Source: a virus
Lineage: Duplodnaviria; Heunggongvirae; Uroviricota; Caudoviricetes
Reading direction: 5' to 3' (one strand)
IMG/VR virus record: IMGVR_UViG_2909303794_000004
Length of the DNA stretch: 52,859 nt
Under the pieces are notes generated by a model. It did not search any database and was not told the origin of the DNA. It worked only from the letters and a program-made list of their open reading frames with translations. Below are positions 1,659-23,765 of the stretch, piece by piece. The number at the start of each line of letters is the position of its first letter. Positions within the stretch are counted from its first letter, which is position 1. The position numbers and the translations under genes were made by a program.

Positions 1659-4130
1659 TTAAGAATCAGCCTGACTCGGGATCAGTTTTTGCCAGATAAC
1701 TGAAACGTATTTTGCCTGGTAACGGGCGTCATCAAGTGCATTATGGCGCTCACCTTCGAATGGAATAGCCGTTCTGGCATCGAAGTCTATGGCTTTCCCC
1801 AGCTCAACGATTGTGCGTACATCGCGATCGTTGTAGTAACGCCACGGGCAGGGGATCCCCTGCCGTTCGTATGAACGGCGCAAAATCGTGTTGTCGAAGT
1901 TGGCTCCATTTCCCCAAACCTGAACAAAAAATTCACCGGAGTTTTCGTCGATAAATTCCCGCAATTGTAACAGTGCATCATCTAACGGGATTTCATCGGT
2001 CATAATGGCAGATTGCGCTTCGCGTGATTGCTTAAGCCACCATTTAATGGTGTCCCGATCAATGACTCCGCCAGCAGTTTCCAGATCGATAGTCTTACTA
2101 AATTCCGGTCCCATATCTCCGGTTTGCGGATCGAAAAATATTGCACCTATTGAGATGATCGGGGCATCAGGATTTTTTCCCATGGTTTCAAGGTCGATCA
2201 TTAGATGGTCACACGTCCTGCTGGTGGATGTGATTTCGTGATGACCGTTCACCTTAATTGAGTGATCTGCCGTCTCGCCAGTTTCATTATCGCTATTGTG
2301 ATGCTGATTGCCGCCAGTGTTCTCCTTGTGTGGATGTTCAGCGCCTTCCATTTCCTCCAGATCATCTTCCTGAACTTCAACCTGATACTCTTCATCGAAT
2401 GTTTCCTGGTATGTTGCGTCGCCCATCACCGCGCCACAATCAGGGCAGTTGCCGCCGCCGGTCTGACCGCAGGCGGTGCAGACTTTTTCCACTTCCAGTT
2501 GCGCCACTGGTTCAGGCTGTTTCGTTTCTGGCTCGTTTTGTAACGCATTTGTGCTGTTTTGTTCCGCTTTTTGGTAGTTCCGTTCCGATTCATGCTGGTT
2601 CTGGTTCACAGAATCGCGGGTCTGGATCCCCTTAACCCATTTCGGATCATTCGGGTCACTAATCCCTTCAACAAATTCACCACGTGATGCAGCAAGCAAC
2701 TTATCGGCGTCAGGCTGGCTGATATTGGCTGCCTGCATAATTTTGTTTACTTCGTCAGCGGTAACTTTTATCGGCTCTGGTTGTTCTGAATCTTCAGCGG
2801 TATCTACATTTTGCGGTAAGCCCGTGTATGTGCCATTTTTTCGGGCAAAATATTCTTCTTTTGTGATTTCAGTGGCGCCAGCAGCCAGTGCCTTATCCAG
2901 ACCAGAAAGTTTGTTTGCGCGACCGTATTTTTCTCCGTCCTTATCTGCGAAGAGGAAATAGAACGGCCCCTCACGCTCTACAGATGGTTCAGCTTCCGGC
3001 GCGGTTTCATTTTTTGGGATATCAGATACCTCAGTTTCCACTGCATCAGTTTGTGTTTCTGATGACTGGAGAACATCAACAGTGCCCAGGTCTGTTTCTT
3101 CATTCTCAAACACGCCCTTTGTCGTCAGGTATTCGCAGATATATTTGTTCAGTGCTATGGGATCTTTGTGAATGTCGATCGGACGCTCACGGACAAGGCC
3201 AAAAATAGTCTGGCGGTCGTAGCGAAGGGCATCAGGCTGTTTGCGCATTGATGCCGAGATACGCTTCCAGTCTTCGCGGTCGTTGTCGATAACTTCTTTT
3301 TTTGCCCAGCGATGGATGCTGCCGTCAATGTTTCCGGCATCCACATCACCAGGCCAGAGAGCGTAGGCCAGTTCGTCATCCAGTGTTTTCCATGTCTGCT
3401 TGTATTCGCGATGAATGGCAGCAATGACCGGGCTGATTTTTCCTGTTGAATTTTCAGTGTACTGTTGATTGGTTCTGGCGCGGGCGAGATCAACAACAGA
3501 CGTGTATTTTCCGGTTTCCTTGCGTTCACCTTCGCGACGTTTTTTCCAGATGCGCATCTCTGCCTGAATTTCGGGCCATTTAGCACCAGGAATACATTTA
3601 TGCTTAACCCACCCAATGGCGTGCAACTTAAGCTCCGGATACATGGCGTTAACTTCTGGCATTTTCATCAACGCTTCAACGATATGTCCGTCGAATGTTG
3701 CCATGTCTTCCTGCAACAATTCCTGTGCGCTAATAACCATATCAACGGTGATGTTTTCACATGTGTCGAACTTAACCATGACAGCGTTCTGTACTTCAGG
3801 GGCCAGCTTGTCAAAAGTGACGTTCATCGGATCGGATTCAGTCTCAACCGGGACAAAAGAAGCAGACTCCTCATCCCAGCGGTTTTCCTGCATATATTCA
3901 GCATCCCATGAATCGAGGGCAGGGCGGGGTATACCGGGTTTATCCTCGCAAACAAGAAATTTATAAGCGCAGTCCTGAGCAGCCGGATAATGTTCCAGGA
4001 ACTGCCAGTGAAATTTTGCTCGAGCACGGCGTTCGTCGCCAGCTTCAATGGCTGTGGCTACAGCCACAGCGCCTTCTTCCCTTGTTGCCAGTTCGTCAGG
4101 AATAGCGGCGCAAATAAAGACTTTACTCAT
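1659..4130 (-). CDS. large exonuclease-family protein: C-terminal DEDDh (DnaQ-like) 3'-5' exonuclease domain, central CxxC…CxxC zinc ribbon
   Basis: 823-aa ORF; C-terminus shows the three exonuclease motifs (DLETMG; NGANFDNTIL; HNALDDARYQ); zinc ribbon CTACGQTGGGNCPDCG mid-protein; sits in the early-left operon where lambdoid recombination exonucleases lie; probably the intact form of the truncated K-12 ydfE. Confidence 0.8.
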   Translation of the reverse strand: MSKVFICAAIPDELATREEGAVAVATAIEAGDERRARAKFHWQFLEHYPAAQDCAYKFLVCEDKPGIPRPALDSWDAEYMQENRWDEESASFVPVETESDPMNVTFDKLAPEVQNAVMVKFDTCENITVDMVISAQELLQEDMATFDGHIVEALMKMPEVNAMYPELKLHAIGWVKHKCIPGAKWPEIQAEMRIWKKRREGERKETGKYTSVVDLARARTNQQYTENSTGKISPVIAAIHREYKQTWKTLDDELAYALWPGDVDAGNIDGSIHRWAKKEVIDNDREDWKRISASMRKQPDALRYDRQTIFGLVRERPIDIHKDPIALNKYICEYLTTKGVFENEETDLGTVDVLQSSETQTDAVETEVSDIPKNETAPEAEPSVEREGPFYFLFADKDGEKYGRANKLSGLDKALAAGATEITKEEYFARKNGTYTGLPQNVDTAEDSEQPEPIKVTADEVNKIMQAANISQPDADKLLAASRGEFVEGISDPNDPKWVKGIQTRDSVNQNQHESERNYQKAEQNSTNALQNEPETKQPEPVAQLEVEKVCTACGQTGGGNCPDCGAVMGDATYQETFDEEYQVEVQEDDLEEMEGAEHPHKENTGGNQHHNSDNETGETADHSIKVNGHHEITSTSRTCDHLMIDLETMGKNPDAPIISIGAIFFDPQTGDMGPEFSKTIDLETAGGVIDRDTIKWWLKQSREAQSAIMTDEIPLDDALLQLREFIDENSGEFFVQVWGNGANFDNTILRRSYERQGIPCPWRYYNDRDVRTIVELGKAIDFDARTAIPFEGERHNALDDARYQAKYVSVIWQKLIPSQADS

Positions 4131-4223: not shown

Positions 4224-4415
4224 TTAAAGACCTGCCGGGATTTCGATATTATCCTGGTGAATAACTTTATCGACCGGGTAACAGTTACCGGGAATTTTCT
4301 GTTCGGTTGCTGCAGTCATACACTCCTGCATTGTCCTGTGCACACTGACTGCAATATCAACTGGCTCTCCGGAAACAAGAAAAACTGTCAGAACAAGCAC
4401 AAATGCTGAATTCAT
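4224..4415 (-). CDS. ydfD: small membrane lysis protein, YdfD-like (63 aa)
   Basis: internal start MNSAFVLVLTVFLVSGE… with N-terminal hydrophobic helix; start overlaps the dicB stop (ATGA); matches remembered K-12 YdfD. Confidence 0.7.
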   Translation of the reverse strand: MNSAFVLVLTVFLVSGEPVDIAVSVHRTMQECMTAATEQKIPGNCYPVDKVIHQDNIEIPAGL

Positions 4416-4600
4416 TGTGCACATCCTTTTGGCATCAGACGTAAACGAGCCAGCATTGAAACAATGCATATTTTATTTAATAGCTCCCGTTCTTGTTTTC
4501 TCTTGTTAATGGCATCTTCAGTAAATACTGGGTTACTGATAGTGACACCAATTTCAAAACAACCTTCAGACGTATTAACGTTTGGTAATAACGTTTTCAT
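4412..4600 (-). CDS. dicB: cell-division inhibitor DicB (62 aa)
   Basis: MKTLLPNVNTSEGCFEIGVTISNPVFTEDAINKRKQERELLNKICIVSMLARLRLMPKGCAQ matches remembered DicB; lies downstream of DicF as in the K-12 dicB operon. Confidence 0.85.
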   Translation of the reverse strand: MKTLLPNVNTSEGCFEIGVTISNPVFTEDAINKRKQERELLNKICIVSMLARLRLMPKGCAQ

Positions 4601-4769: not shown

Positions 4770-4827
4770 AAAAAGGGCGGCAGAGCAGTCACGGAGTAAA
4801 ACTGATACCGCCAAACGTCACCAGAAA
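4770..4827 (-). ncRNA. dicF: DicF small regulatory RNA with intrinsic terminator
   Basis: minus-strand sequence UUUCUGGUGACGUUUGGCGGUAUCAGUUUUACUCCGUGACUGCUCUGCCGCCCUUUUU matches remembered DicF, including GC stem and U tail; located between ydfC and dicB. Confidence 0.8.
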
Positions 4828-5869: not shown

Positions 5870-6277
5870 TTATTTTATTGATTTATTTTTACGCGCTTTA
5901 AGCATTTCTTCGAAGAGTTTGTTGAAGTTTTCTACTCTTGCGCGCATTTCAGACAGCAAGGCTTCCTGCTCGGAAGATGGAAGAGCATCGAATAATTCGA
6001 TCAATTCTTTGTGGTTGGGAGTTAGCTCTGTTTCCACATGAAGTTCTTGTGCAGGCACTGGTGCCTTGTCTTCGTCACCAAACATTAGCCATGTAGGTGA
6101 GCACTTCAGAGCATCCGCTAAAGCAAACAATCGTTTTCCGACTGGCTGGGTTTCGTCTCTTTCCCATTGTGAAATTGTGACGTGAGCAACTCCAGCGAGG
6201 CGCGCGGCTTCTCGTTGTGTTAAGCGTAATTCTTTTCGTCGCGCCAGAACTCGCTGGCCCAGGGTTCTTGTATCCAT
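5870..6277 (-). CDS. dicA: HTH XRE-family prophage repressor DicA (135 aa)
   Basis: N-terminal HTH (LTQREAARLAGVAHVTISQWERDE) and C-terminal …EMRARVENFNKLFEEMLKARK closely resemble remembered K-12 DicA; divergent from a Cro-like gene. Confidence 0.9.
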   Translation of the reverse strand: MDTRTLGQRVLARRKELRLTQREAARLAGVAHVTISQWERDETQPVGKRLFALADALKCSPTWLMFGDEDKAPVPAQELHVETELTPNHKELIELFDALPSSEQEALLSEMRARVENFNKLFEEMLKARKNKSIK

Positions 6278-6358: not shown

Positions 6359-6584
6359 ATGCTTAAAGTTGACGCAATTACTTTTTTTGGCAGCAAAACA
6401 AAGCTTGCCAATGCCGCAGGAGTGAGGCTGGCAAGTGTTGCTGCTTGGGGGATACTTTCCTGAAGGTCGCGCGATGCGTCTACAGGAGGCATCTGGCGGG
6501 GAGCTTCAGTATGATCCCAAAGTTTATGATGAATATCGTAAGACGAAGCGGGCGGGGCGGTTGAACAATGAAAATCACTCCTGA
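6359..6584 (+). pseudogene. dicC: Cro-like regulator DicC homologue, reading frame broken at a G5 run
   Basis: N-terminal HTH part (MLKVDAITFFGSKTKLANAAGVRLASVAAWG) stops at TGA 6461-6463; C-terminal part (…PEGRAMRLQEASGGELQYDPKVYDEYRKTKRAGRLNNENHS) is in the +1 frame to 6584; frames overlap at GGGGG 6447-6451. Confidence 0.5.
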
Positions 6585-7089
6585 ACAGGCTCGTGAGGCT
6601 CTGGATGCCTGGATATGTCGACCAGGAATGACACAGGAGCAGGCGACGATATTAATCACTGAAGCATTCTGGGCTTTGAAAGAGCGCCCGAACATCGATG
6701 TTCAGCGTGTCACAGATGAAGGTGGTGCGGTTGATCAGCGAGCGCTTGGTGTTAATCGAGTGAAGATATTCGAACGCTGGAAGGCTATCGACACCAGGGA
6801 TAAGCGTGAAAAGTTCACGGCGCTAGTGCCTGCGATTATGGAGGCTATCCGGATTAGTGATTTCAGGTTGTATCGTGAAATTACTGACGGAAAAAGCATC
6901 ACGTGCATGATCGCCGGGTTAAACAAAGAATATGGCGATGTGGTGGAGTCCGGACTGCTTTTTGCTGATCCTGCCGTAGTGGATCGTGAAACTGACGAAC
7001 TTATAGAAAAAGCAATTGCTTTCAAGCTTGCGTATCGACAGCAATACCAACAAAAAGCTGGATGGAATTATGAGCCTTCTTTTTGCTGA
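6568..7089 (+). CDS. hypothetical early regulatory protein, possibly YdaT/CII-like
   Basis: 173-aa ORF directly after the Cro-like gene and before the replication gene, the cII position; family assignment is a guess from memory. Confidence 0.45.
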   Translation: MKITPEQAREALDAWICRPGMTQEQATILITEAFWALKERPNIDVQRVTDEGGAVDQRALGVNRVKIFERWKAIDTRDKREKFTALVPAIMEAIRISDFRLYREITDGKSITCMIAGLNKEYGDVVESGLLFADPAVVDRETDELIEKAIAFKLAYRQQYQQKAGWNYEPSFC

Positions 7090-8079: not shown

Positions 8080-8502
8080 GTGGCAAAAGTTTTTACACAA
8101 GAAGAGCGGGAAAAAATTAAATGGCAGGTGGTGGAACTCGTGCGCCAGAGCGGCCGTGAGACGTTACGGCAACTGGAAGCTAAAACAGGTGCGACTAGAT
8201 ATCTGATGAGCGTTCTTGCCAGAGAGCTGGTAGCCAGTGGCGATGTATACAACTCCGGCTACGGGTTATTCCCCTCTGAACAGGCGCGTAAGGACTGGCA
8301 AAACGCCCGCAAAAAACTCTCGAGGGCAAAGGTGAAGAAACCTGCTGTGGTTGATCCGGACCTTATCTGGTCATCACCTGACGGAGAAATACGTCGCTAC
8401 GACAGTCGCCTAAACATAATCTGTCGCGAGTGCCGGAAGAGCGAAGTTATGCAGCGCATACTGGCTTTCTATCAGGGTAATTTTCAGGACGTGGCGCAGT
8501 GA
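8080..8502 (+). CDS. hypothetical phage protein (140 aa)
   Basis: GTG start 7 nt after a strong Shine-Dalgarno (AAGGGGGA); occupies the position of lambda P but is too small and unlike a helicase loader. Confidence 0.55.
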   Translation: MAKVFTQEEREKIKWQVVELVRQSGRETLRQLEAKTGATRYLMSVLARELVASGDVYNSGYGLFPSEQARKDWQNARKKLSRAKVKKPAVVDPDLIWSSPDGEIRRYDSRLNIICRECRKSEVMQRILAFYQGNFQDVAQ

Positions 8503-8844
8503 GTGCACCGGCAACCATTCTTGATATGTGCTGTGGCAGCCGCATGTTCTGGTTCGATAAGTCTGACGAACGGGCGATATTCAGCGATATCAGAAAAGAA
8601 GGATACACATTACGCAATGGGAGACGCTTGATTATCAGCCCTGACATTATCGCAGATTTTCGTGCATTATCATTTGCAGACGCATCTTTTTCGATGGTTG
8701 TATTAGACCCTCCGCATCTTGAGAGTGTTGGTGATAACGCCTGGATGGGAAAGAAATATGGACGGCTGAATAAAGATGCCTGGCGTGATGATTCGCGACA
8801 GAGATTTAAAGAAGCCTTTCGGGTGTTGAGGCCGCACGGCGTAC
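8499..8844 (+). pseudogene. DNA methyltransferase gene, 3' end removed by IS insertion
   Basis: SAM-binding motif ILDMCCGS and a DPPH(L) motif; reading frame runs into the IS629-like left end at 8845. Confidence 0.65.
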
Positions 8845-8898
8845 TGAACCGCCCCGGGAATCCTGGAGACTAAACTCCCTGAGAAAGAGGTAAACAGG

Positions 8899-9225
8899 AT
8901 GACTAAAAATACACGTTTTTCCCCCGAGGTCCGTCAACGGGCAGTTCGTATGGTTCTGGAAAGTCAGGGCGAATATGACTCTCAATGGGCGGCAATTTGT
9001 TCCATTGCCCCAAAGATTGGCTGTACACCAGAGACTCTGCGTGTGTGGGTTCGTCAGCATGAGCGGGATACCGGGAGTGGTGATGGTGGACTCACCACCG
9101 CTGAACGTCAGCGTCTGAAAGAGCTGGAACGTGAAAATCGTGAACTGCGCCGCAGTAACGATATCCTTCGCCAGGCTTCCGCTTATTTTGCGAAGGCGGA
9201 GTTCGACCGCCTCTGGAAAAAATAA
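8899..9225 (+). CDS. IS3-family transposase OrfA (108 aa)
   Basis: [50 protein letters not shown]… matches remembered IS629 OrfA. Confidence 0.9.
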
Positions 9226-10112
9226 TGCCGCTGCTGGATAAGCTGCGTGAGCAGTACGGGGTCGGACCGGTATGCAGTGAACTGCATATTGCCCCGTCAA
9301 CGTATTACCACTGTCAGCAACAGCGACATCATCCTGATAAACGCAGTGCCCGTGCTCAGCGCGATGACTGGCTGAAGAGAGAGATACAGCGCGTATACGA
9401 TGAAAATCATCAGGTGTACGGTGTGCGTAAAGTCTGGCGCCAGTTGTTACGCGAAGGTATCAGGGTGGCCAGATGTACAGTGGCGCGCCTCATGGCGGTT
9501 ATGGGACTTGCCGGTGTTCTCCGGGGTAAAAAGGTCCGTACTACCGTCAGCCGGAAAGCCGTTTCCGCAGGCGACCGCGTAAACCGTCAGTTCGTGGCAG
9601 AACGTCCTGACCAGCTGTGGGTGGCTGATTTTACTTACGTCAGCACATGGCAGGGCTTCGTCTATGTGGCGTTCATCATTGATGTGTTTGCCGGATGTAT
9701 CGTGGGGTGGCGAGTCTCATCGTCTATGGAAACGACATTCGTGCTGGATGCACTGGAGCAGGCGTTGTGGGCCCGTCGGCCGTCCGGCACAGTCCATCAC
9801 AGTGATAAAGGTTCTCAGTATGTATCACTGGCCTATACGGAGCGACTAAAAGAAGCAAAACTGCTGGCATCAACAGGGAGTACAGGTGACTCGTATGACA
9901 ACGCGATGGCGGAGAGCATCAATGGTCTTTACAAAGCGGAGGTAATACACCGTAAGAGCTGGAAAAACCGTGCAGAAGTGGAACTGGCCACACTCACGTG
10001 GGTGGACTGGTATAACAATCGACGATTGCTGGGAAGGCTGGGTCATATCCCTCCGGCAGAAGCAGAAAAAGCTTATTATGCTTCCATCAGAAACGATGAT
10101 CTGGCAGCCTGA
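9225..10112 (+). CDS. IS3-family transposase OrfB (DDE domain)
   Basis: 295-aa ORF overlapping orfA in the -1 frame near an A-run, typical of IS3-family OrfAB. Confidence 0.9.
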   Translation: MPLLDKLREQYGVGPVCSELHIAPSTYYHCQQQRHHPDKRSARAQRDDWLKREIQRVYDENHQVYGVRKVWRQLLREGIRVARCTVARLMAVMGLAGVLRGKKVRTTVSRKAVSAGDRVNRQFVAERPDQLWVADFTYVSTWQGFVYVAFIIDVFAGCIVGWRVSSSMETTFVLDALEQALWARRPSGTVHHSDKGSQYVSLAYTERLKEAKLLASTGSTGDSYDNAMAESINGLYKAEVIHRKSWKNRAEVELATLTWVDWYNNRRLLGRLGHIPPAEAEKAYYASIRNDDLAA

Positions 10113-11855: not shown

Positions 11856-13148
11856 ATGAGTCATAAGGAACTCCACCGACTTCAGATTATTCAGGAACAA
11901 GCTGCGGCACGCATTGGCATTTCTATTCGGCAGGTTAAACGTCTGGTGCAACGGTATAGAAATGAAGGGCCTTCTGGTCTGGTTTCCCACCGACGTGGAA
12001 AGCGTCCTAATAATTCCTTTTCTACTGAATTCAGAGCAACAGTAATTTCACTCCTCAAAGGCCGTTACGCTGATTTTGGACCTACGTTTGCGTGCGAAAA
12101 ATTGCGCGAGATACACGGTTTATCTTTATCCGTTGAAACTCTCAGAAAGTGGATGATAGAAGAGGGGTTATGGCGTGAACGCCGTCGTAAAATTGCCCGT
12201 ATATATCAACGCCGCATGCGACGACCATCTTACGGTGAACTGATCCAGATTGATGGCTCACCTCATGACTGGTTTGAAAATCGAGGCCCCAGATGTACAC
12301 TGATCGTTTTCATTGATGATGCCACCAGTGCGTTGATGGCGTTGCGTTTTGTGCCTGCTGAAACAACCCGGGCTTACATGGAAACCCTCCGGGGTTACCT
12401 TAATGATCATGGCGTACCGCTCGCTCTCTACTCTGATAGACACAGTATATTCAGGGTAAATAACCCAGAGCGGGAAGGTGAGCTGACCCAGTTCACTCGT
12501 GCGATAAAGACACTGGGCATCGAGCCAATCCATGCCAACAGCCCGCAGGCAAAAGGGCGGGTAGAGCGCGCCAATCAGACACTACAGGACAGGCTGGTCA
12601 AAGAAATGCGGCTTCAGAATATCAGTGATATTGAAACAGCAAATGCATGGTTGCCGACCTTTATTGAAGCCTATAACAACCGGTTCGCTACGTCGCCTCG
12701 TACTACTGATAATGCTCATCTTGATGTGCACCATTCTGAAGAGGAACTGGGTTATATCTTCAGCCTACAGGCGAAGCGCGTTCTGTCTAAAAATCTCACT
12801 TTCCAGTACAAAAGCAGTGCGTTTCAGGTACGCAGTGAGGGCCGGGGATATCGACTTAGGCATTCGGTTGTTACTGTATGCGAGAACTTTGACGGTGAAA
12901 TTAACGTTCTGTATGACGGGAAAGCGCTGGGCTGGGAAAAGTATGTTGATGGCCCGGAGCCTATACCACTGGATGATGAAAAGAGTGTCCATGAACGAGT
13001 GGATAATGCCCGTATTGATTTACGCTCAAAATACTATGTTAAACCTAAAGCTGACCATCCCTGGCTTACGCGCCGAACGCAAAGTCATCAGCAAGTTAAG
13101 CCCCCGAAGTTACCTAAAAAGAAGCCTGATCCCGATAAAAAAGATTGA
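11856..13148 (+). CDS. DDE (rve-type) transposase with N-terminal HTH, IS481-family-like
   Basis: 430-aa ORF; HTH followed by integrase core (…IDDATSA…YSDRHSIF…HANSPQAKGRVERANQTL…); element ends not resolved. Confidence 0.8.
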   Translation: MSHKELHRLQIIQEQAAARIGISIRQVKRLVQRYRNEGPSGLVSHRRGKRPNNSFSTEFRATVISLLKGRYADFGPTFACEKLREIHGLSLSVETLRKWMIEEGLWRERRRKIARIYQRRMRRPSYGELIQIDGSPHDWFENRGPRCTLIVFIDDATSALMALRFVPAETTRAYMETLRGYLNDHGVPLALYSDRHSIFRVNNPEREGELTQFTRAIKTLGIEPIHANSPQAKGRVERANQTLQDRLVKEMRLQNISDIETANAWLPTFIEAYNNRFATSPRTTDNAHLDVHHSEEELGYIFSLQAKRVLSKNLTFQYKSSAFQVRSEGRGYRLRHSVVTVCENFDGEINVLYDGKALGWEKYVDGPEPIPLDDEKSVHERVDNARIDLRSKYYVKPKADHPWLTRRTQSHQQVKPPKLPKKKPDPDKKD

Positions 13149-13771: not shown

Positions 13772-14173
13772 GTGGGAACCAAAGTGTCAGATATGCAGAA
13801 AAATGTGACTCCCGGCAGGCGAAAAGGCTGCCCTAATTATCCTCCCGAATTTAAACAGCAGCTCGTTGCTGCCTCCTGTGAACCCGGGATATCCATCTCA
13901 AAACTTGCTCTTGAAAATGGCATTAACGCCAATCTGTTGTTCAAATGGCGACAACAATGGCGCGAGGGAAAGCTGCTATTACCTTCTTCAGAGAGCCCCC
14001 AGCTACTTCCTGTGACTCTCGATGCAGCTGCCGAACAGCCAGAATCGCTCGCAGAGGACCCGGAAACCCTCAGTATCAGCTGTGAGGTAACGTTCCGGCA
14101 CGGGACGCTCCGCTTCAATGGCAATGTCAGCGAAAAGCTCCTGACTCTGCTGATACAGGAACTGAAGCGATGA
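13772..14173 (+). CDS. IS66-family accessory protein (orf1)
   Basis: first ORF of the IS66-type three-gene set. Confidence 0.8.
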   Translation: MGTKVSDMQKNVTPGRRKGCPNYPPEFKQQLVAASCEPGISISKLALENGINANLLFKWRQQWREGKLLLPSSESPQLLPVTLDAAAEQPESLAEDPETLSISCEVTFRHGTLRFNGNVSEKLLTLLIQELKR

Positions 14174-14517
14174 TCCCGTTACCTTCCGGGACCAAAATTT
14201 GGCTGGTTGCCGGTATCACCGATATGAGAAATGGCTTCAACGGCCTGGCTGCGAAAGTACAGACGGCGCTGAAAGACGATCCCATGTCCGGCCATGTTTT
14301 CATTTTCCGGGGCCGCAGCGGCAGTCAGGTTAAACTGCTGTGGTCCACCGGTGACGGGCTGTGCCTCCTGACCAAACGGCTGGAGCGTGGGCGCTTCGCC
14401 TGGCCGTCAGCCCGTGATGGCAAAGTGTTCCTTACGCAGGCGCAGCTGGCGATGCTGCTGGAAGGTATCGACTGGCGACAGCCTAAGCGGCTGCTGACCT
14501 CCCTGACCATGCTGTAA
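14170..14517 (+). CDS. IS66-family accessory protein (orf2)
   Basis: 115-aa ORF overlapping orf1 by ATGA, typical of IS66. Confidence 0.85.
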
Positions 14518-14566
14518 ATCTCTTTATCCTGGTTGTCACAGAATAAGCCCGGTAAAATACGGGCTT

Positions 14567-16105
14567 ATGAACGACATCTCTTCTGACGACATCTTCCTGC
14601 TGAAACAGCGCCTGGCCGAACAGGAAGCGCTGATCCACGCCCTGCAGGAAAAGCTGAGCAACCGGGAGCGCGAAATAGACCATCTGCAGGCGCAGCTGGA
14701 TAAACTCCGCCGGATGAACTTCGGCAGTCGTTCCGAAAAAGTCTCCCGCCGTATCGCACAAATGGAAGCCGATCTGAACCGGCTTCAGAAAGAGAGCGAT
14801 ACGCTGACTGGTAGGGTGTATGACCCGGCAGTACAGCGTCCGTTGCATCAGACCCGCACCCGTAAGCCGTTCCCTGAATCACTACCCCGTGACGAAAAGC
14901 GACTGTTGCCTGCGGCGCCGTGCTGCCCGAACTGCGGCGGTTCACTGAGCTATCTGGGCGAGGATACCGCCGAACAGCTGGAGTTGATGCGTAGCGCCTT
15001 CCGGGTTATCCGGACGGTACGGGAAAAACATGCCTGTACTCAGTGCGATGCCATCGTGCAGGCACCTGCACCTTCGCGGCCCATCGAGCGGGGTATCGCC
15101 GGACCGGGGCTGCTGGCCCGCGTGCTGACCTCGAAGTATGCAGAGCACACCCCGCTGTATCGCCAGTCAGAAATATACGGCCGGCAAGGTGTGGAGCTGA
15201 GCCGTTCACTGCTGTCGGGCTGGGTGGATGCATGCTGCCGGCTGCTGTCTCCGCTGGAAGAGGCGCTTCATGGCTATGTCATGACTGACGGCAAACTCCA
15301 TGCCGATGATACCCCGGTCCAGGTACTGCTGCCGGGTAATAAGAAGACGAAGACCGGGCGGTTGTGGGCGTATGTTCGTGATGACCGCAATGCCGGGTCA
15401 GCGTTGGCACCTGCAGTGAGGTTCGCTTACAGCCCGGACAGAAAAGGCATCCATCCGCAGGCTCATCTTGCTTGCTTCAGCGGTGTGCTGCAAGCGGATG
15501 CGTACGCCGGGTTCAACGAGCTGTATCGCAATGGTGGGATAACGGAAGCTGCCTGCTGGGCTCATGCCCGCCGAAAGATCCACGATGTGCACGTCCGCAT
15601 CCCGTCAGCACTGACGGAAGAAGCCCTGGAGCAGATCGGTCAGTTGTACGCCATAGAGGCGGATATAAGGGGAATGCCGGCAGAGCAGCGGCTTGCTGAA
15701 CGTCAGCGAAAAACGAAACCGCTGTTGAAATCCCTGGAAAGCTGGTTGCGTGAAAAGATGAAGACCCTGTCGCGACACTCAGAGTTGGCGAAGGCGTTCG
15801 CGTACGCACTTAACCAGTGGCCGGCACTGACGTACTATGCGAACGATGGCTGGGTGGAAATCGACAACAACATCGCTGAAAATGCCCTGCGGGCGGTCAG
15901 TCTGGGTCGTAAAAACTTCCTGTTCTTCGGCTCTGACCATGGTGGTGAGCGGGGAGCGCTACTGTACAGCCTGATCGGGACGTGCAAACTGAATGACGTG
16001 GATCCAGAAAGCTACCTTCGCCATGTGCTTGGCGTCATAGCAGACTGGCCGGTCAACCGGGTCAGCGAACTGCTTCCGTGGCGCATAGCACTGCCAGCTG
16101 AATAA
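14567..16105 (+). CDS. IS66-family transposase (orf3)
   Basis: 512-aa ORF with N-terminal coiled-coil/leucine zipper and cysteine cluster (CPNCG…CTQCD), typical of IS66 transposases. Confidence 0.9.
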
Positions 16106-22874: not shown

Positions 22875-23765
22875 TCAGGCTGCCAGATCATCGTTTCCGA
22901 TGGAAGCATAATAAGCTTTTTCTGCTTCTGCCGGAGGAGTATGGCCCAGCCTTTCCAGCAATCGTCGATTGTTATACCAGTCCACCCACGTGAGTGTGGC
23001 CAGTTCCACTTCTGCACGGTTTTTCCAGCTCTTACGGTGTATTACCTCCGCTTTGTAAAGGCCATTGATGCTCTCCGCCATCGCGTTGTCATACGAGTCG
23101 CCTGTACTTCCTGTTGATGCCAGTAATCCGGCTTCCTTAAGCCGCTGTGTGTAGGCCAGCGATACATACTGAGAACCTTTATCACTGTGATGGACTGTGC
23201 CGGACGGTCGACGGGCCCATAACGCCTGCTCCAGAGCATCCAGCACAAATGTCGTTTCCATAGACGATGAGACCCGCCACCCCACGATGTATCCGGCAAA
23301 CACATCAATGATGAACGCCACATAGACGACCCCCTGCCATGTGCTGACGTAAGTAGAATCAGCCACCCACAACTGGTCAGGACGTTCTGCCACGAACTGA
23401 CGGTTTACGCGGTCGCCTGCGACAACGGCTTTCCGGCTGATGGTCGTACGGACCTTTTTACCACGGAGAACACCGGCAAGTCCCATAACCGCCATGAGAC
23501 GTGCCACAGTGCATCTGGCCACTCTGATACCTTCCCGTAACAACTGACGCCAGACTTTACGCACACCGTATACCTTGTGATTTTCATCGTATACGCGCTG
23601 TATCTCTTTCTTCAGCCAGTCATCGCGCTGCGCACGGGCACTGCGTTTATCCGGATGATGTCGCTGTTGCTGACAGTGGTAATACGTTGACGGGGCAATA
23701 TGCAGTTCGCTGCATAGCGGTCCGACCCCGTACTGCTCACGCAGCTTATCCAGCAGTGGCATCAT
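22875..23765 (-). CDS. IS3-family transposase OrfB
   Basis: 296-aa ORF homologous to 9225-10112. Confidence 0.9.

Follow-up and report, generated by a model that had tools for sequence, protein, structure and literature searches.

A RecE-type scaffold with a predicted DexA-like DEDDh exonuclease domain in the recE-recT slot of a Qin-type prophage operon

The IMG/VR virus record IMGVR_UViG_2909303794_000004, a 52,859-nt stretch of Caudoviricetes DNA (the window, meaning this whole stretch), encodes close to its beginning an 823-amino acid (aa) protein in which the N-terminal scaffold of the RecE (exodeoxyribonuclease VIII) family precedes a DEDDh nuclease domain resembling DexA of phage T4; aa and codon numbers below refer to this protein unless another is named. 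A preliminary reading made from the DNA letters (the sequence-only reading) had listed the gene as an 823-aa exonuclease, and its open reading frame (ORF) indeed runs uninterrupted from an ATG start on the minus strand (Table 1). RefSeq product names for the protein are "exonuclease" or "3'-5' exoribonuclease", an identical protein is deposited as WP_101972890.1, and the 90%-identity cluster of the latter has 23,183 members. Parts of the scaffold carry the precomputed Pfam names YdfE_N (PF27430) and YdfE_C (PF27432). The AlphaFold2 (AF2) model of the full protein contains three confident domains (aa 245–345, 386–435, and 641–820) with disordered acidic linkers between them. The N-terminal region, previously summarized as an acidic region of about 500 aa, is net acidic as described, but it contains several folded modules, which acidic disordered linkers connect.

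By profile, catalytic residues, and predicted structure, the C-terminal domain is assigned to the DEDDh exonucleases, and 3'-5' activity is predicted for it. The Pfam profile PF16473 (Rv2179c-like 3'-5' exoribonuclease domain) matches aa 642–813 with an E-value of 2.3e-67 (226.5 bits, cut-off 27), covering positions 2–177 of its 177, and PF00929 (RNase_T) gives only a weak match. The residues D646 and E648 (in MIDLETMG), D746 (NFDNT), and H796 and D801 (HNALDD) line up with the catalytic residues of T4 DexA. In an 80-sequence family alignment extending to relatives of approximately 40% identity, D646 never varies, and the remaining four residues are each at least 90% conserved. The AF2 model predicts an RNase-H-like DEDD fold for aa 641–820 (predicted local distance difference test score, pLDDT, ~97), for which Foldseek against the PDB placed T4 DexA at the top (E 6.5e-11, target TM-score 0.64–0.72), followed by RNase T and oligoribonuclease/REXO2. 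T4 DexA (8KEL, E 1.6e-6) and its mutant 8KEN were also the only PDB sequences found by phmmer at E ≤1. An exhaustive representative search for the nuclease family returned 12,149 clusters, mostly of stand-alone proteins of ~180–200 aa, and no PADLOC model matched the 823-aa protein.

The region in front of the nuclease belongs largely to the RecE family. The NCBIfam equivalog for exodeoxyribonuclease VIII (NF007259) aligns aa 246–625 to RecE 271–602 only, scoring 280.4 bits against a cut-off of 1269, and Pfam detects no PD-(D/E)XK domain in the 823-aa protein (no PF12684 match). Both results agree with the sequence-only reading, which had recognized DnaQ-like motifs at the C-terminus and had opted for a DEDDh rather than a PD-(D/E)XK fold; the latter fold, named there as the refuting finding, did not turn up. 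In BLASTP against K-12 RecE (from NC_000913.3), aa 262–625 align with RecE 278–591 (E 1e-59, 39% identity over 364 aa), and the two proteins are near-identical from aa 474 on (~90% over aa 474–625). Further upstream, hhalign identified aa 221–338 as homologous to RecE 235–353 with a probability of 99.8%, while the helical domain at aa 221–345 has no significant match to solved structures or viral models. The first 220 aa show no detectable similarity to the first 235 aa of K-12 RecE. A remote relationship of this module to the RecE N-terminus (PF06630) was considered and rejected (hhalign probability 0.1%), and a likeness seen by eye (F-x-V-x-D-x-P...W...Y) found no support in hhalign. A genome-contig scan, which detects close relatives only, located the aa 1–220 module only in Escherichia/Shigella and in one metagenome-assembled genome. 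The small beta-beta-alpha domain is present in YdfE-type proteins and in P0244, a 901-aa protein of the representative library, and absent from K-12 RecE. As the N-terminal region of P0244 mixes RecE-N-like and YdfE_N-like segments (corresponding to aa 80–240), the N-terminal scaffold itself appears to be mosaic.

The zinc ribbon is likewise assigned to the shared RecE-type scaffold and not to the DEDDh module, because the near-identical stretch shared with K-12 RecE (ribbon sequence CNACGQTGGDNCPDCG) includes it. All four of its cysteines recur in each of the E. coli-type relatives examined, even in a homologue that is ~70% identical over that segment (CNTCGRAGGGKCPDCG). The sequence-only reading had noted a CxxC…CxxC ribbon preceding the nuclease; the ribbon exists, but an acidic, His-rich, predicted-disordered linker of ~65–75 aa lies between the two.

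Comparison with relatives points to an exchange of the nuclease on a conserved scaffold. A search with aa 1–630 recovered proteins in which the same N-terminus (97% identity) carries either PF12684, the PD-(D/E)XK nuclease of RecE, in proteins of ~900 aa, or PF16473, in proteins of 812–826 aa. The DNA of the window gene is 98.6% identical to the 900-aa PF12684-type gene of locus L004 from 100 nt upstream of the start to codon ~623, and the similarity ends abruptly there, at window position ~2264. The converse chimera exists in locus L020 (protein P0241), where a K-12-type RecE N-terminus (88% over ~600 aa) carries the same DEDDh domain (99% identical), and at the DNA level the agreement with the window extends from codon ~483 to 8 nt beyond the stop codon. 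The DNA of the stretch that we call segment B is 78% identical to K-12 recE and 94% identical to the L020 gene, and segment B is likely to be the homologous crossover region for this module shuffling. At locus L019 (6001–10013), a YdfE-type N-terminus is joined, in a protein of 987 aa, to a diverged DUF3799 PD-(D/E)XK domain, and a divergent RecT of 345 aa is encoded next. As this is a third cassette type, the scaffold accepts at least three different nuclease cassettes. Beyond the close Escherichia set, more distant prophages also combine RecE-like N-termini (PF06630, 25–37% identical to RecE) with DEDDh domains (55–60% identical to that of the window). The designation as an "exonuclease fusion" captured the joining of two parts but missed that the N-terminal and middle part is itself RecE-family scaffold: judged from these alignments, the gene is a nuclease-cassette swap within the RecE family and not an unrelated fusion.

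Among the supposedly stand-alone homologues examined, only a Salmonella gene and EcD proved genuine. Two further candidates for a solo domain were rejected as frameshifted or uncalled fusion remnants. An apparent stand-alone 183-aa E. coli exonuclease is the end of a frameshifted fusion (456 + 157 + 183 aa; L008, 737–3127), and an apparent stand-alone 239-aa Enterobacter protein has RecE-N-like reading frames upstream (L011, 4246–6720). Owing to such fragment entries of scaffold-DEDDh fusions, counts of "stand-alone" proteins from Enterobacteriaceae are inflated. The Salmonella homologue (L005, 4743–6570; 189 aa, 58% identical) is the last gene before xis in a yfdP/yfdQ-type prophage and is preceded by a gene of the DNA-modification-associated DndB family. 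EcD is the E. coli homologue for which a 2025 study (PMC12153337) reports digestion of T4 DNA containing 5-hydroxymethylcytosine (5hmC) and protection of cells, under the name "HREX", alongside the solved structure of T4 DexA. Using the published primers, we located EcD as a 189-aa gene, with A78 as given in that study, in the P2-like prophage contigs L043 and L046 (IMG/VR). In L046 it occupies 6401–6970 (−), beside a Dam-like methyltransferase and between a gpA-like replication gene and repressor/integrase genes; EcD is a prophage gene rather than a chromosomal defence gene. The forward primer finds the gene, while the reverse primer as printed (EcD_R) contains one extra A and gave one chance match. 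With a Dam-like methyltransferase beside EcD and DndB in L005, a link of the DEDDh family to DNA-modification genes is possible.

Table 1. Features of the window around the exonuclease gene, modules of the encoded protein, and mobile elements further along
Feature	Position	Strand	dN/dS	Remarks
Integrase	20–1315	−		
Excisionase (xis)	1335–1586	−		Directly downstream of the exonuclease gene, 72-nt spacer
Exonuclease-scaffold gene	1659–4130	−		Complete ATG-started 823-aa ORF, 0 internal stops; PHROG 2082
DEDDh 3'-5' exonuclease domain (predicted), DexA-like, aa 642–813	1692–2207	−	0.09–0.24 (where dS is informative)	PF16473; pLDDT ~97
Acidic His-rich linker, predicted disordered, aa 571–634	2229–2420	−		Contains the cassette junction at ~2264 (codon ~623)
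Segment B, codons ~476–623, linker-rich	2264–2706	−	0.27–0.57 (aa 476–623)	Holds the DKLLAASRGEFV.GISDPNDPKWV motif, zinc ribbon, and acidic linker
Zinc ribbon CxxC-x7-CxxC, aa 551–565 (CTACGQTGGGNCPDC)	2436–2480	−		C551, C554, C562, C565
Small beta-beta-alpha domain, aa 386–435 (GPFYFLFADKDGEKYGRANKL...)	2826–2975	−	0.03–0.05	pLDDT ~95
Acidic linker, predicted disordered, aa 346–385	2976–3095	−		11 acidic and 1 basic residue in 40
Helical domain common to all RecE-family scaffolds, aa 221–345	3096–3470	−	0.23–0.26	pLDDT 92–98 over aa 245–345
YdfE-type-specific N-terminal module, aa 1–220	3471–4130	−	0.07–0.10	AF2 confidence low to moderate
ydfD-like small gene	4224–4415	−		PHROG 1092; directly upstream of the exonuclease gene, same operon
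dicB-like gene	4412–4600	−		PHROG 1251
DicF small RNA	4775–4826	−		Rfam RF00039, 76.7 bits; between the ydfC-like and dicB-like genes
DicA/CI-type repressor gene	5870–6277	−		Head of the region
Truncated DNA methyltransferase ORF	8499–8873			
IS3-type element	ORFs 8899–9225, 9225–10112			After the truncated methyltransferase ORF
Transposase	11856–13148			
IS66-type trio	13772–16105			
Transposase	22875–23765	−		

The exonuclease gene is the last gene of the operon before xis, and the presence of DicF marks the region as a Qin-type dicBF early-left operon. This arm is colinear with dicA-ydfABC-dicF-dicB-ydfD-ydfE-int of the K-12 prophage Qin, in which ydfE (b1577), a pseudogene cut by the insertion sequence IS2 (IS2E), is a truncated remnant of the 823-aa gene; the loci of two E. 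coli strains match aa 1–257 at 99%. Placement of the gene where lambdoid phages encode recombination exonucleases, as proposed in the sequence-only reading, was borne out, as it is flanked in the early-left operon by xis and the dicB/kil-type genes, in the slot where the prophage Rac carries recE-recT. None of recT, ralR, and rcbA occurs between the exonuclease gene and xis. No RecT was found in the 52.9-kb window by tblastn with two RecT proteins, and no annealing protein of any family was detected by PHROG in the early-left ORFs or in those early-right, insertion sequence (IS), and late-regulatory ORFs that reach 110 aa. While recT follows all three PD-(D/E)XK genes examined (K-12 Rac, L004, and L019), tblastn found no RecT at any of the 11 DEDDh loci, the window among them, where xis-int follow directly (3/3 vs. 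0/11, Fisher exact p ~0.003). No sigma-70-like promoter lies between ydfD and the exonuclease gene, and a promoter/terminator scan near the gene yielded nothing above shuffled expectation.

Within the spacer between the exonuclease gene and xis, at ~1616–1647 on the minus strand, we observed a perfect 9-bp inverted repeat (CGCCGGTTG ... CAACCGGCG, 14-nt loop). It is not followed by a T-run and was not called by the terminator scan, but may be a site of RNA processing or retroregulation. The prophage of the window carries several IS elements (Table 1) and is probably defective, though its exonuclease gene is intact.

This gene is among the commonest prophage genes of E. coli. The DEDDh cassette is found in 4069 of 5426 complete E. 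coli genomes (approximately three quarters), amounting to 8102 copies with up to seven per genome and six in an O157:H7 genome, whereas the PD-(D/E)XK domain of RecE is present in 1736 of the same genomes. Intact homologues occur in temperate phages that are plaque-forming or sequenced (mEp460, Tritos, HannyBb, PhiR42_1, and Evi) and in PPompW prophages of Stx strains. Pairwise ratios of nonsynonymous to synonymous substitution rates (dN/dS), computed against the homologues from mEp460, Evi, and an E. albertii genome, place all folded modules under purifying selection (0.03–0.26; Table 1). The sequence family is already catalogued, though with no function attached, in RefSeq and elsewhere (PHROG 2082 "exonuclease"; Pfam YdfE_N, YdfE_C, and Rv2179c-like; and the product names of the Prokaryotic Genome Annotation Pipeline, PGAP). 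This cataloguing, the absence of recT, and the extreme commonness of the gene had all escaped the sequence-only reading. In the literature searched, we found no paper on the function of YdfE, on the relationship between scaffold and cassette, or on RecE-DEDDh fusions; a Gifsy-1/RtcR paper and Lopes et al. 2010 proved irrelevant to the protein. The supplementary list of DexA homologues in PMC12153337 includes VUF53858.1, the 826-aa homologue of phage Evi, but the accessible portion of its main text does not mention the fusion of scaffold and DEDDh domain.

Taken together, we favour with moderate confidence the explanation that the gene, part of the early dicBF/pL operon, encodes a 3'-5' DNA exonuclease tethered to a scaffold and not a component of a two-component recombinase. 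Its scaffold (aa 1–625) comprises the N-terminal module, the helical and beta-beta-alpha domains, a DKLLAASRGEF motif, and the Cys4 ribbon, and the disordered acidic linker joins this RecE-family scaffold to the DexA-like DEDDh nuclease (aa ~640–823). The DEDDh domain replaces a cassette composed of the PD-(D/E)XK RecE nuclease and recT (with or without ralR/rcbA), the swap having probably occurred by recombination inside the conserved segment B. The C-terminal domain may act as a two-metal 3'-5' exonuclease that removes nucleotides from free 3'-OH ends. Its substrate would most probably be DNA, since DexA and EcD are DNA exonucleases and the scaffold derives from one, and the scaffold may deliver or tether the nuclease to the target of RecE scaffolds, probably DNA ends or a host factor. 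The gene would be expressed with the dicBF/pL operon once the repressor is lifted, as supported by the lack of a sigma-70-like promoter after ydfD and by the position of DicF and dicB upstream on the same strand. The lack of an adjacent annealing protein argues against a RecET/Red-type two-component recombinase. We prefer a putative role in degrading or trimming 3' ends of linear DNA during lytic development, with DNA of the host or of a competing phage, or 3' tails at breaks, as targets, although the earlier conclusion that the role is unclear still holds.

Several observations weigh against this explanation. PF16473 is named for the exoribonuclease Rv2179c and the PGAP product name is "3'-5' exoribonuclease", so that an RNA substrate is possible. 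The residues to which PMC12153337 attributes 5hmC recognition and the dimer state are not matched in the window protein, where W152 of DexA aligns with Tyr and D90 is kept as Asp in place of the Ala of EcD. More distant fusions of RecE-like N-termini with DEDDh domains lack the zinc ribbon, which is therefore not essential to the architecture. The RecE N-terminal domain is listed as being of unknown function in a 2023 structural review (PMC11611040), which makes targeting by the scaffold a conjecture. Finally, the prophage of the window bears several IS elements, and expression of its copy during productive lytic growth may therefore never take place.

A possible but unlikely alternative is that the DEDDh domain is an HREX-type inter-phage weapon that digests modified DNA (5hmC or other) of superinfecting virulent phages and thus serves exclusion or defence. 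EcD, a homologue in the same families (PF16473/PHROG 255) with 38% identity, protects against T4 according to PMC12153337 and is itself borne by a P2-like element, and the phage Evi member of the fusion family appears in the homologue list of that study. A prevalence this high, with up to seven copies per genome, is what is typically seen for accessory and competition genes. In the same operon, the neighbouring dicB is reportedly a phage-resistance gene, which would fit such a function as well. On the other hand, the exonuclease gene is located in a repressor-controlled early operon without a promoter-like site of its own, no PADLOC model recognizes its product, and the Trp of DexA aligns with a Tyr while the tetramer-forming Asp lost in EcD is retained, although on alignment the residue logic of the HREX study appears neither to include nor to exclude the window protein. 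A weapon of this type also leaves unexplained why the domain is fused to a RecE scaffold and alternates with the RecE nuclease and recT.

The alternation of two cassettes in otherwise near-identical genes, together with the RecE slot and scaffold, speaks for a second alternative, which we consider similarly unlikely: an accessory function in recombination or repair, in which the nuclease would, for example, trim non-homologous 3' tails or make 5' overhangs in cooperation with host RecA/RecFOR or with the annealing protein of another prophage. E. coli strains usually hold several lambdoid prophages, and recE-recT is present in 1736 of the 5426 genomes. Moreover, according to the abstract of PMC12153337, T4 DexA helps to process double-strand breaks during intron homing. 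Yet none of the 11 DEDDh loci has a linked annealing protein, 3'-5' resection destroys the very 3' tails that the RecA, RecT, and Red-beta pathways use, and the stand-alone homologues in the Salmonella prophage (beside xis) and in the P2-like early operon have no recombination genes nearby.

We regard it as quite unlikely that the protein is an RNA 3'-5' exonuclease similar to Rv2179c or to the ISG20-like "TONDO" proteins, with operon transcripts, DicF, tRNA, or RNA-phage genomes as targets. In addition to the family and product names, this is suggested by RNase T and oligoribonuclease being the next structural matches after DexA, and by a preprint (PMC13344964) on DEDDh exonucleases of bacteria and prophages that bear variable auxiliary domains and act in defence against RNA phages. 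However, the TONDO set was limited to proteins shorter than 500 aa in an ISG20-like subfamily described as distinct from other defence DEDDh domains, the phmmer search of the PDB at E ≤1 reached T4 DexA and its mutant but not Rv2179c, the partner scaffold derives from a DNA exonuclease, and EcD, the only characterized temperate-phage homologue, was assayed on DNA. A non-functional relic of illegitimate fusion that hitch-hikes in defective prophages, as might be suspected from the IS elements in the window, the truncated K-12 copy ydfE, and the frameshifted copies common in databases, is strongly disfavoured and very improbable, given the intact ORF in the window and in functional phages, the conserved catalytic residues, the low dN/dS in every folded module, and the persistence of the same architecture down to 30% scaffold identity in other genera.

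Going beyond the scaffold-tethered DNA exonuclease that we favour, the N-terminal scaffold of RecE could be a nuclease-agnostic targeting module whose DEDDh version is a widespread prophage weapon against the DNA ends of competitor phages or the host, a generalization that we find rather unlikely. If true, phages would plug either a recombinogenic cassette (5'-3' nuclease and RecT) or a destructive 3'-5' DexA-like nuclease into the same scaffold, which would represent a new class of end-targeted exclusion or takeover systems and offer a direct handle on the binding target of the RecE N-terminus. The main value of our findings lies in correcting annotations and in offering a natural experiment that bears on the N-terminus of RecE as well as on 3'-5' exonucleases of temperate phages. 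Without the RecE nuclease, without recT, and with a score below the equivalog cut-off, labels such as "exodeoxyribonuclease VIII" on phage records are misannotations. The protein appears as exonuclease VIII or RecE in thousands of E. coli and phage records, although the polarity expected of it is the opposite. The natural chimeras, combining two scaffold types with two nuclease cassettes, constitute a ready experiment on the ~600-aa N-terminal region of RecE, a decades-old question with a practical stake, as full-length RecE enables linear-linear recombineering and direct cloning. Furthermore, the gene ties lambdoid prophages to the newly described DexA/EcD exonucleases, of which the published "bacterial" EcD is also prophage-encoded, and temperate-phage 3'-5' exonucleases may have a general part, so far unexplored, in competition between phages or in the processing of DNA ends.

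Among known systems, RecE/exodeoxyribonuclease VIII of Rac (K-12 b1350; NF007259; PF06630 and PF12684) is close in context and design. Both genes occupy the same early-left slot upstream of xis-int, both proteins place a nuclease at the C-terminus of a long scaffold, and aa ~221–625 are homologous in their helical domain, DKLLAASRGEFV.GISDPNDPKWV motif, Cys4 ribbon, and acidic linker. They differ in the first ~220 aa, which are unrelated, in the equivalog score far below the cut-off, and in the PD-(D/E)XK domain and adjacent recT that the window gene lacks, with the opposite polarity (3'-5') expected of its product. Lambda Exo/Bet and other SynExo two-component recombinases share the equivalent lambdoid neighbourhood, whereas the window protein has another fold, another expected polarity, and no annealing partner found in the window. 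Rv2179c of Mycobacterium tuberculosis, the founder of PF16473, belongs to the same Pfam family, whose profile is matched over its full length, but it is a stand-alone cellular exoribonuclease and, not being reached by phmmer, more distant than DexA.

T4 DexA (8KEL/8KEN) is the nearest solved structure, with aligned catalytic residues and shared membership in PF16473/PHROG 255. The identity is ~22–26%, however, and whereas the 183-aa DEDDh domain of the temperate phage is carried on a 640-aa scaffold, DexA comes from a virulent phage, stands alone with 227 aa, and has additional loops and a dimer/tetramer switch. In PMC12153337, Trp W152 and Asp D169 of DexA are proposed for 5hmC recognition, and D90 is described as tetramer-forming. 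W152 aligns with a Tyr of the window protein (PWRYYNDRD) and the D169 region aligns ambiguously with AIDFD, while D90 is kept as an Asp (IPLDDALL) where EcD has Ala78. Finally, EcD (HAK9828821.1) differs from the window protein as a stand-alone 189-aa gene of a P2-like early region without scaffold or zinc ribbon, but it is likewise a DexA homologue borne by a temperate phage, 38% identical over 183 aa (E ~1e-37) and with the same catalytic residues.

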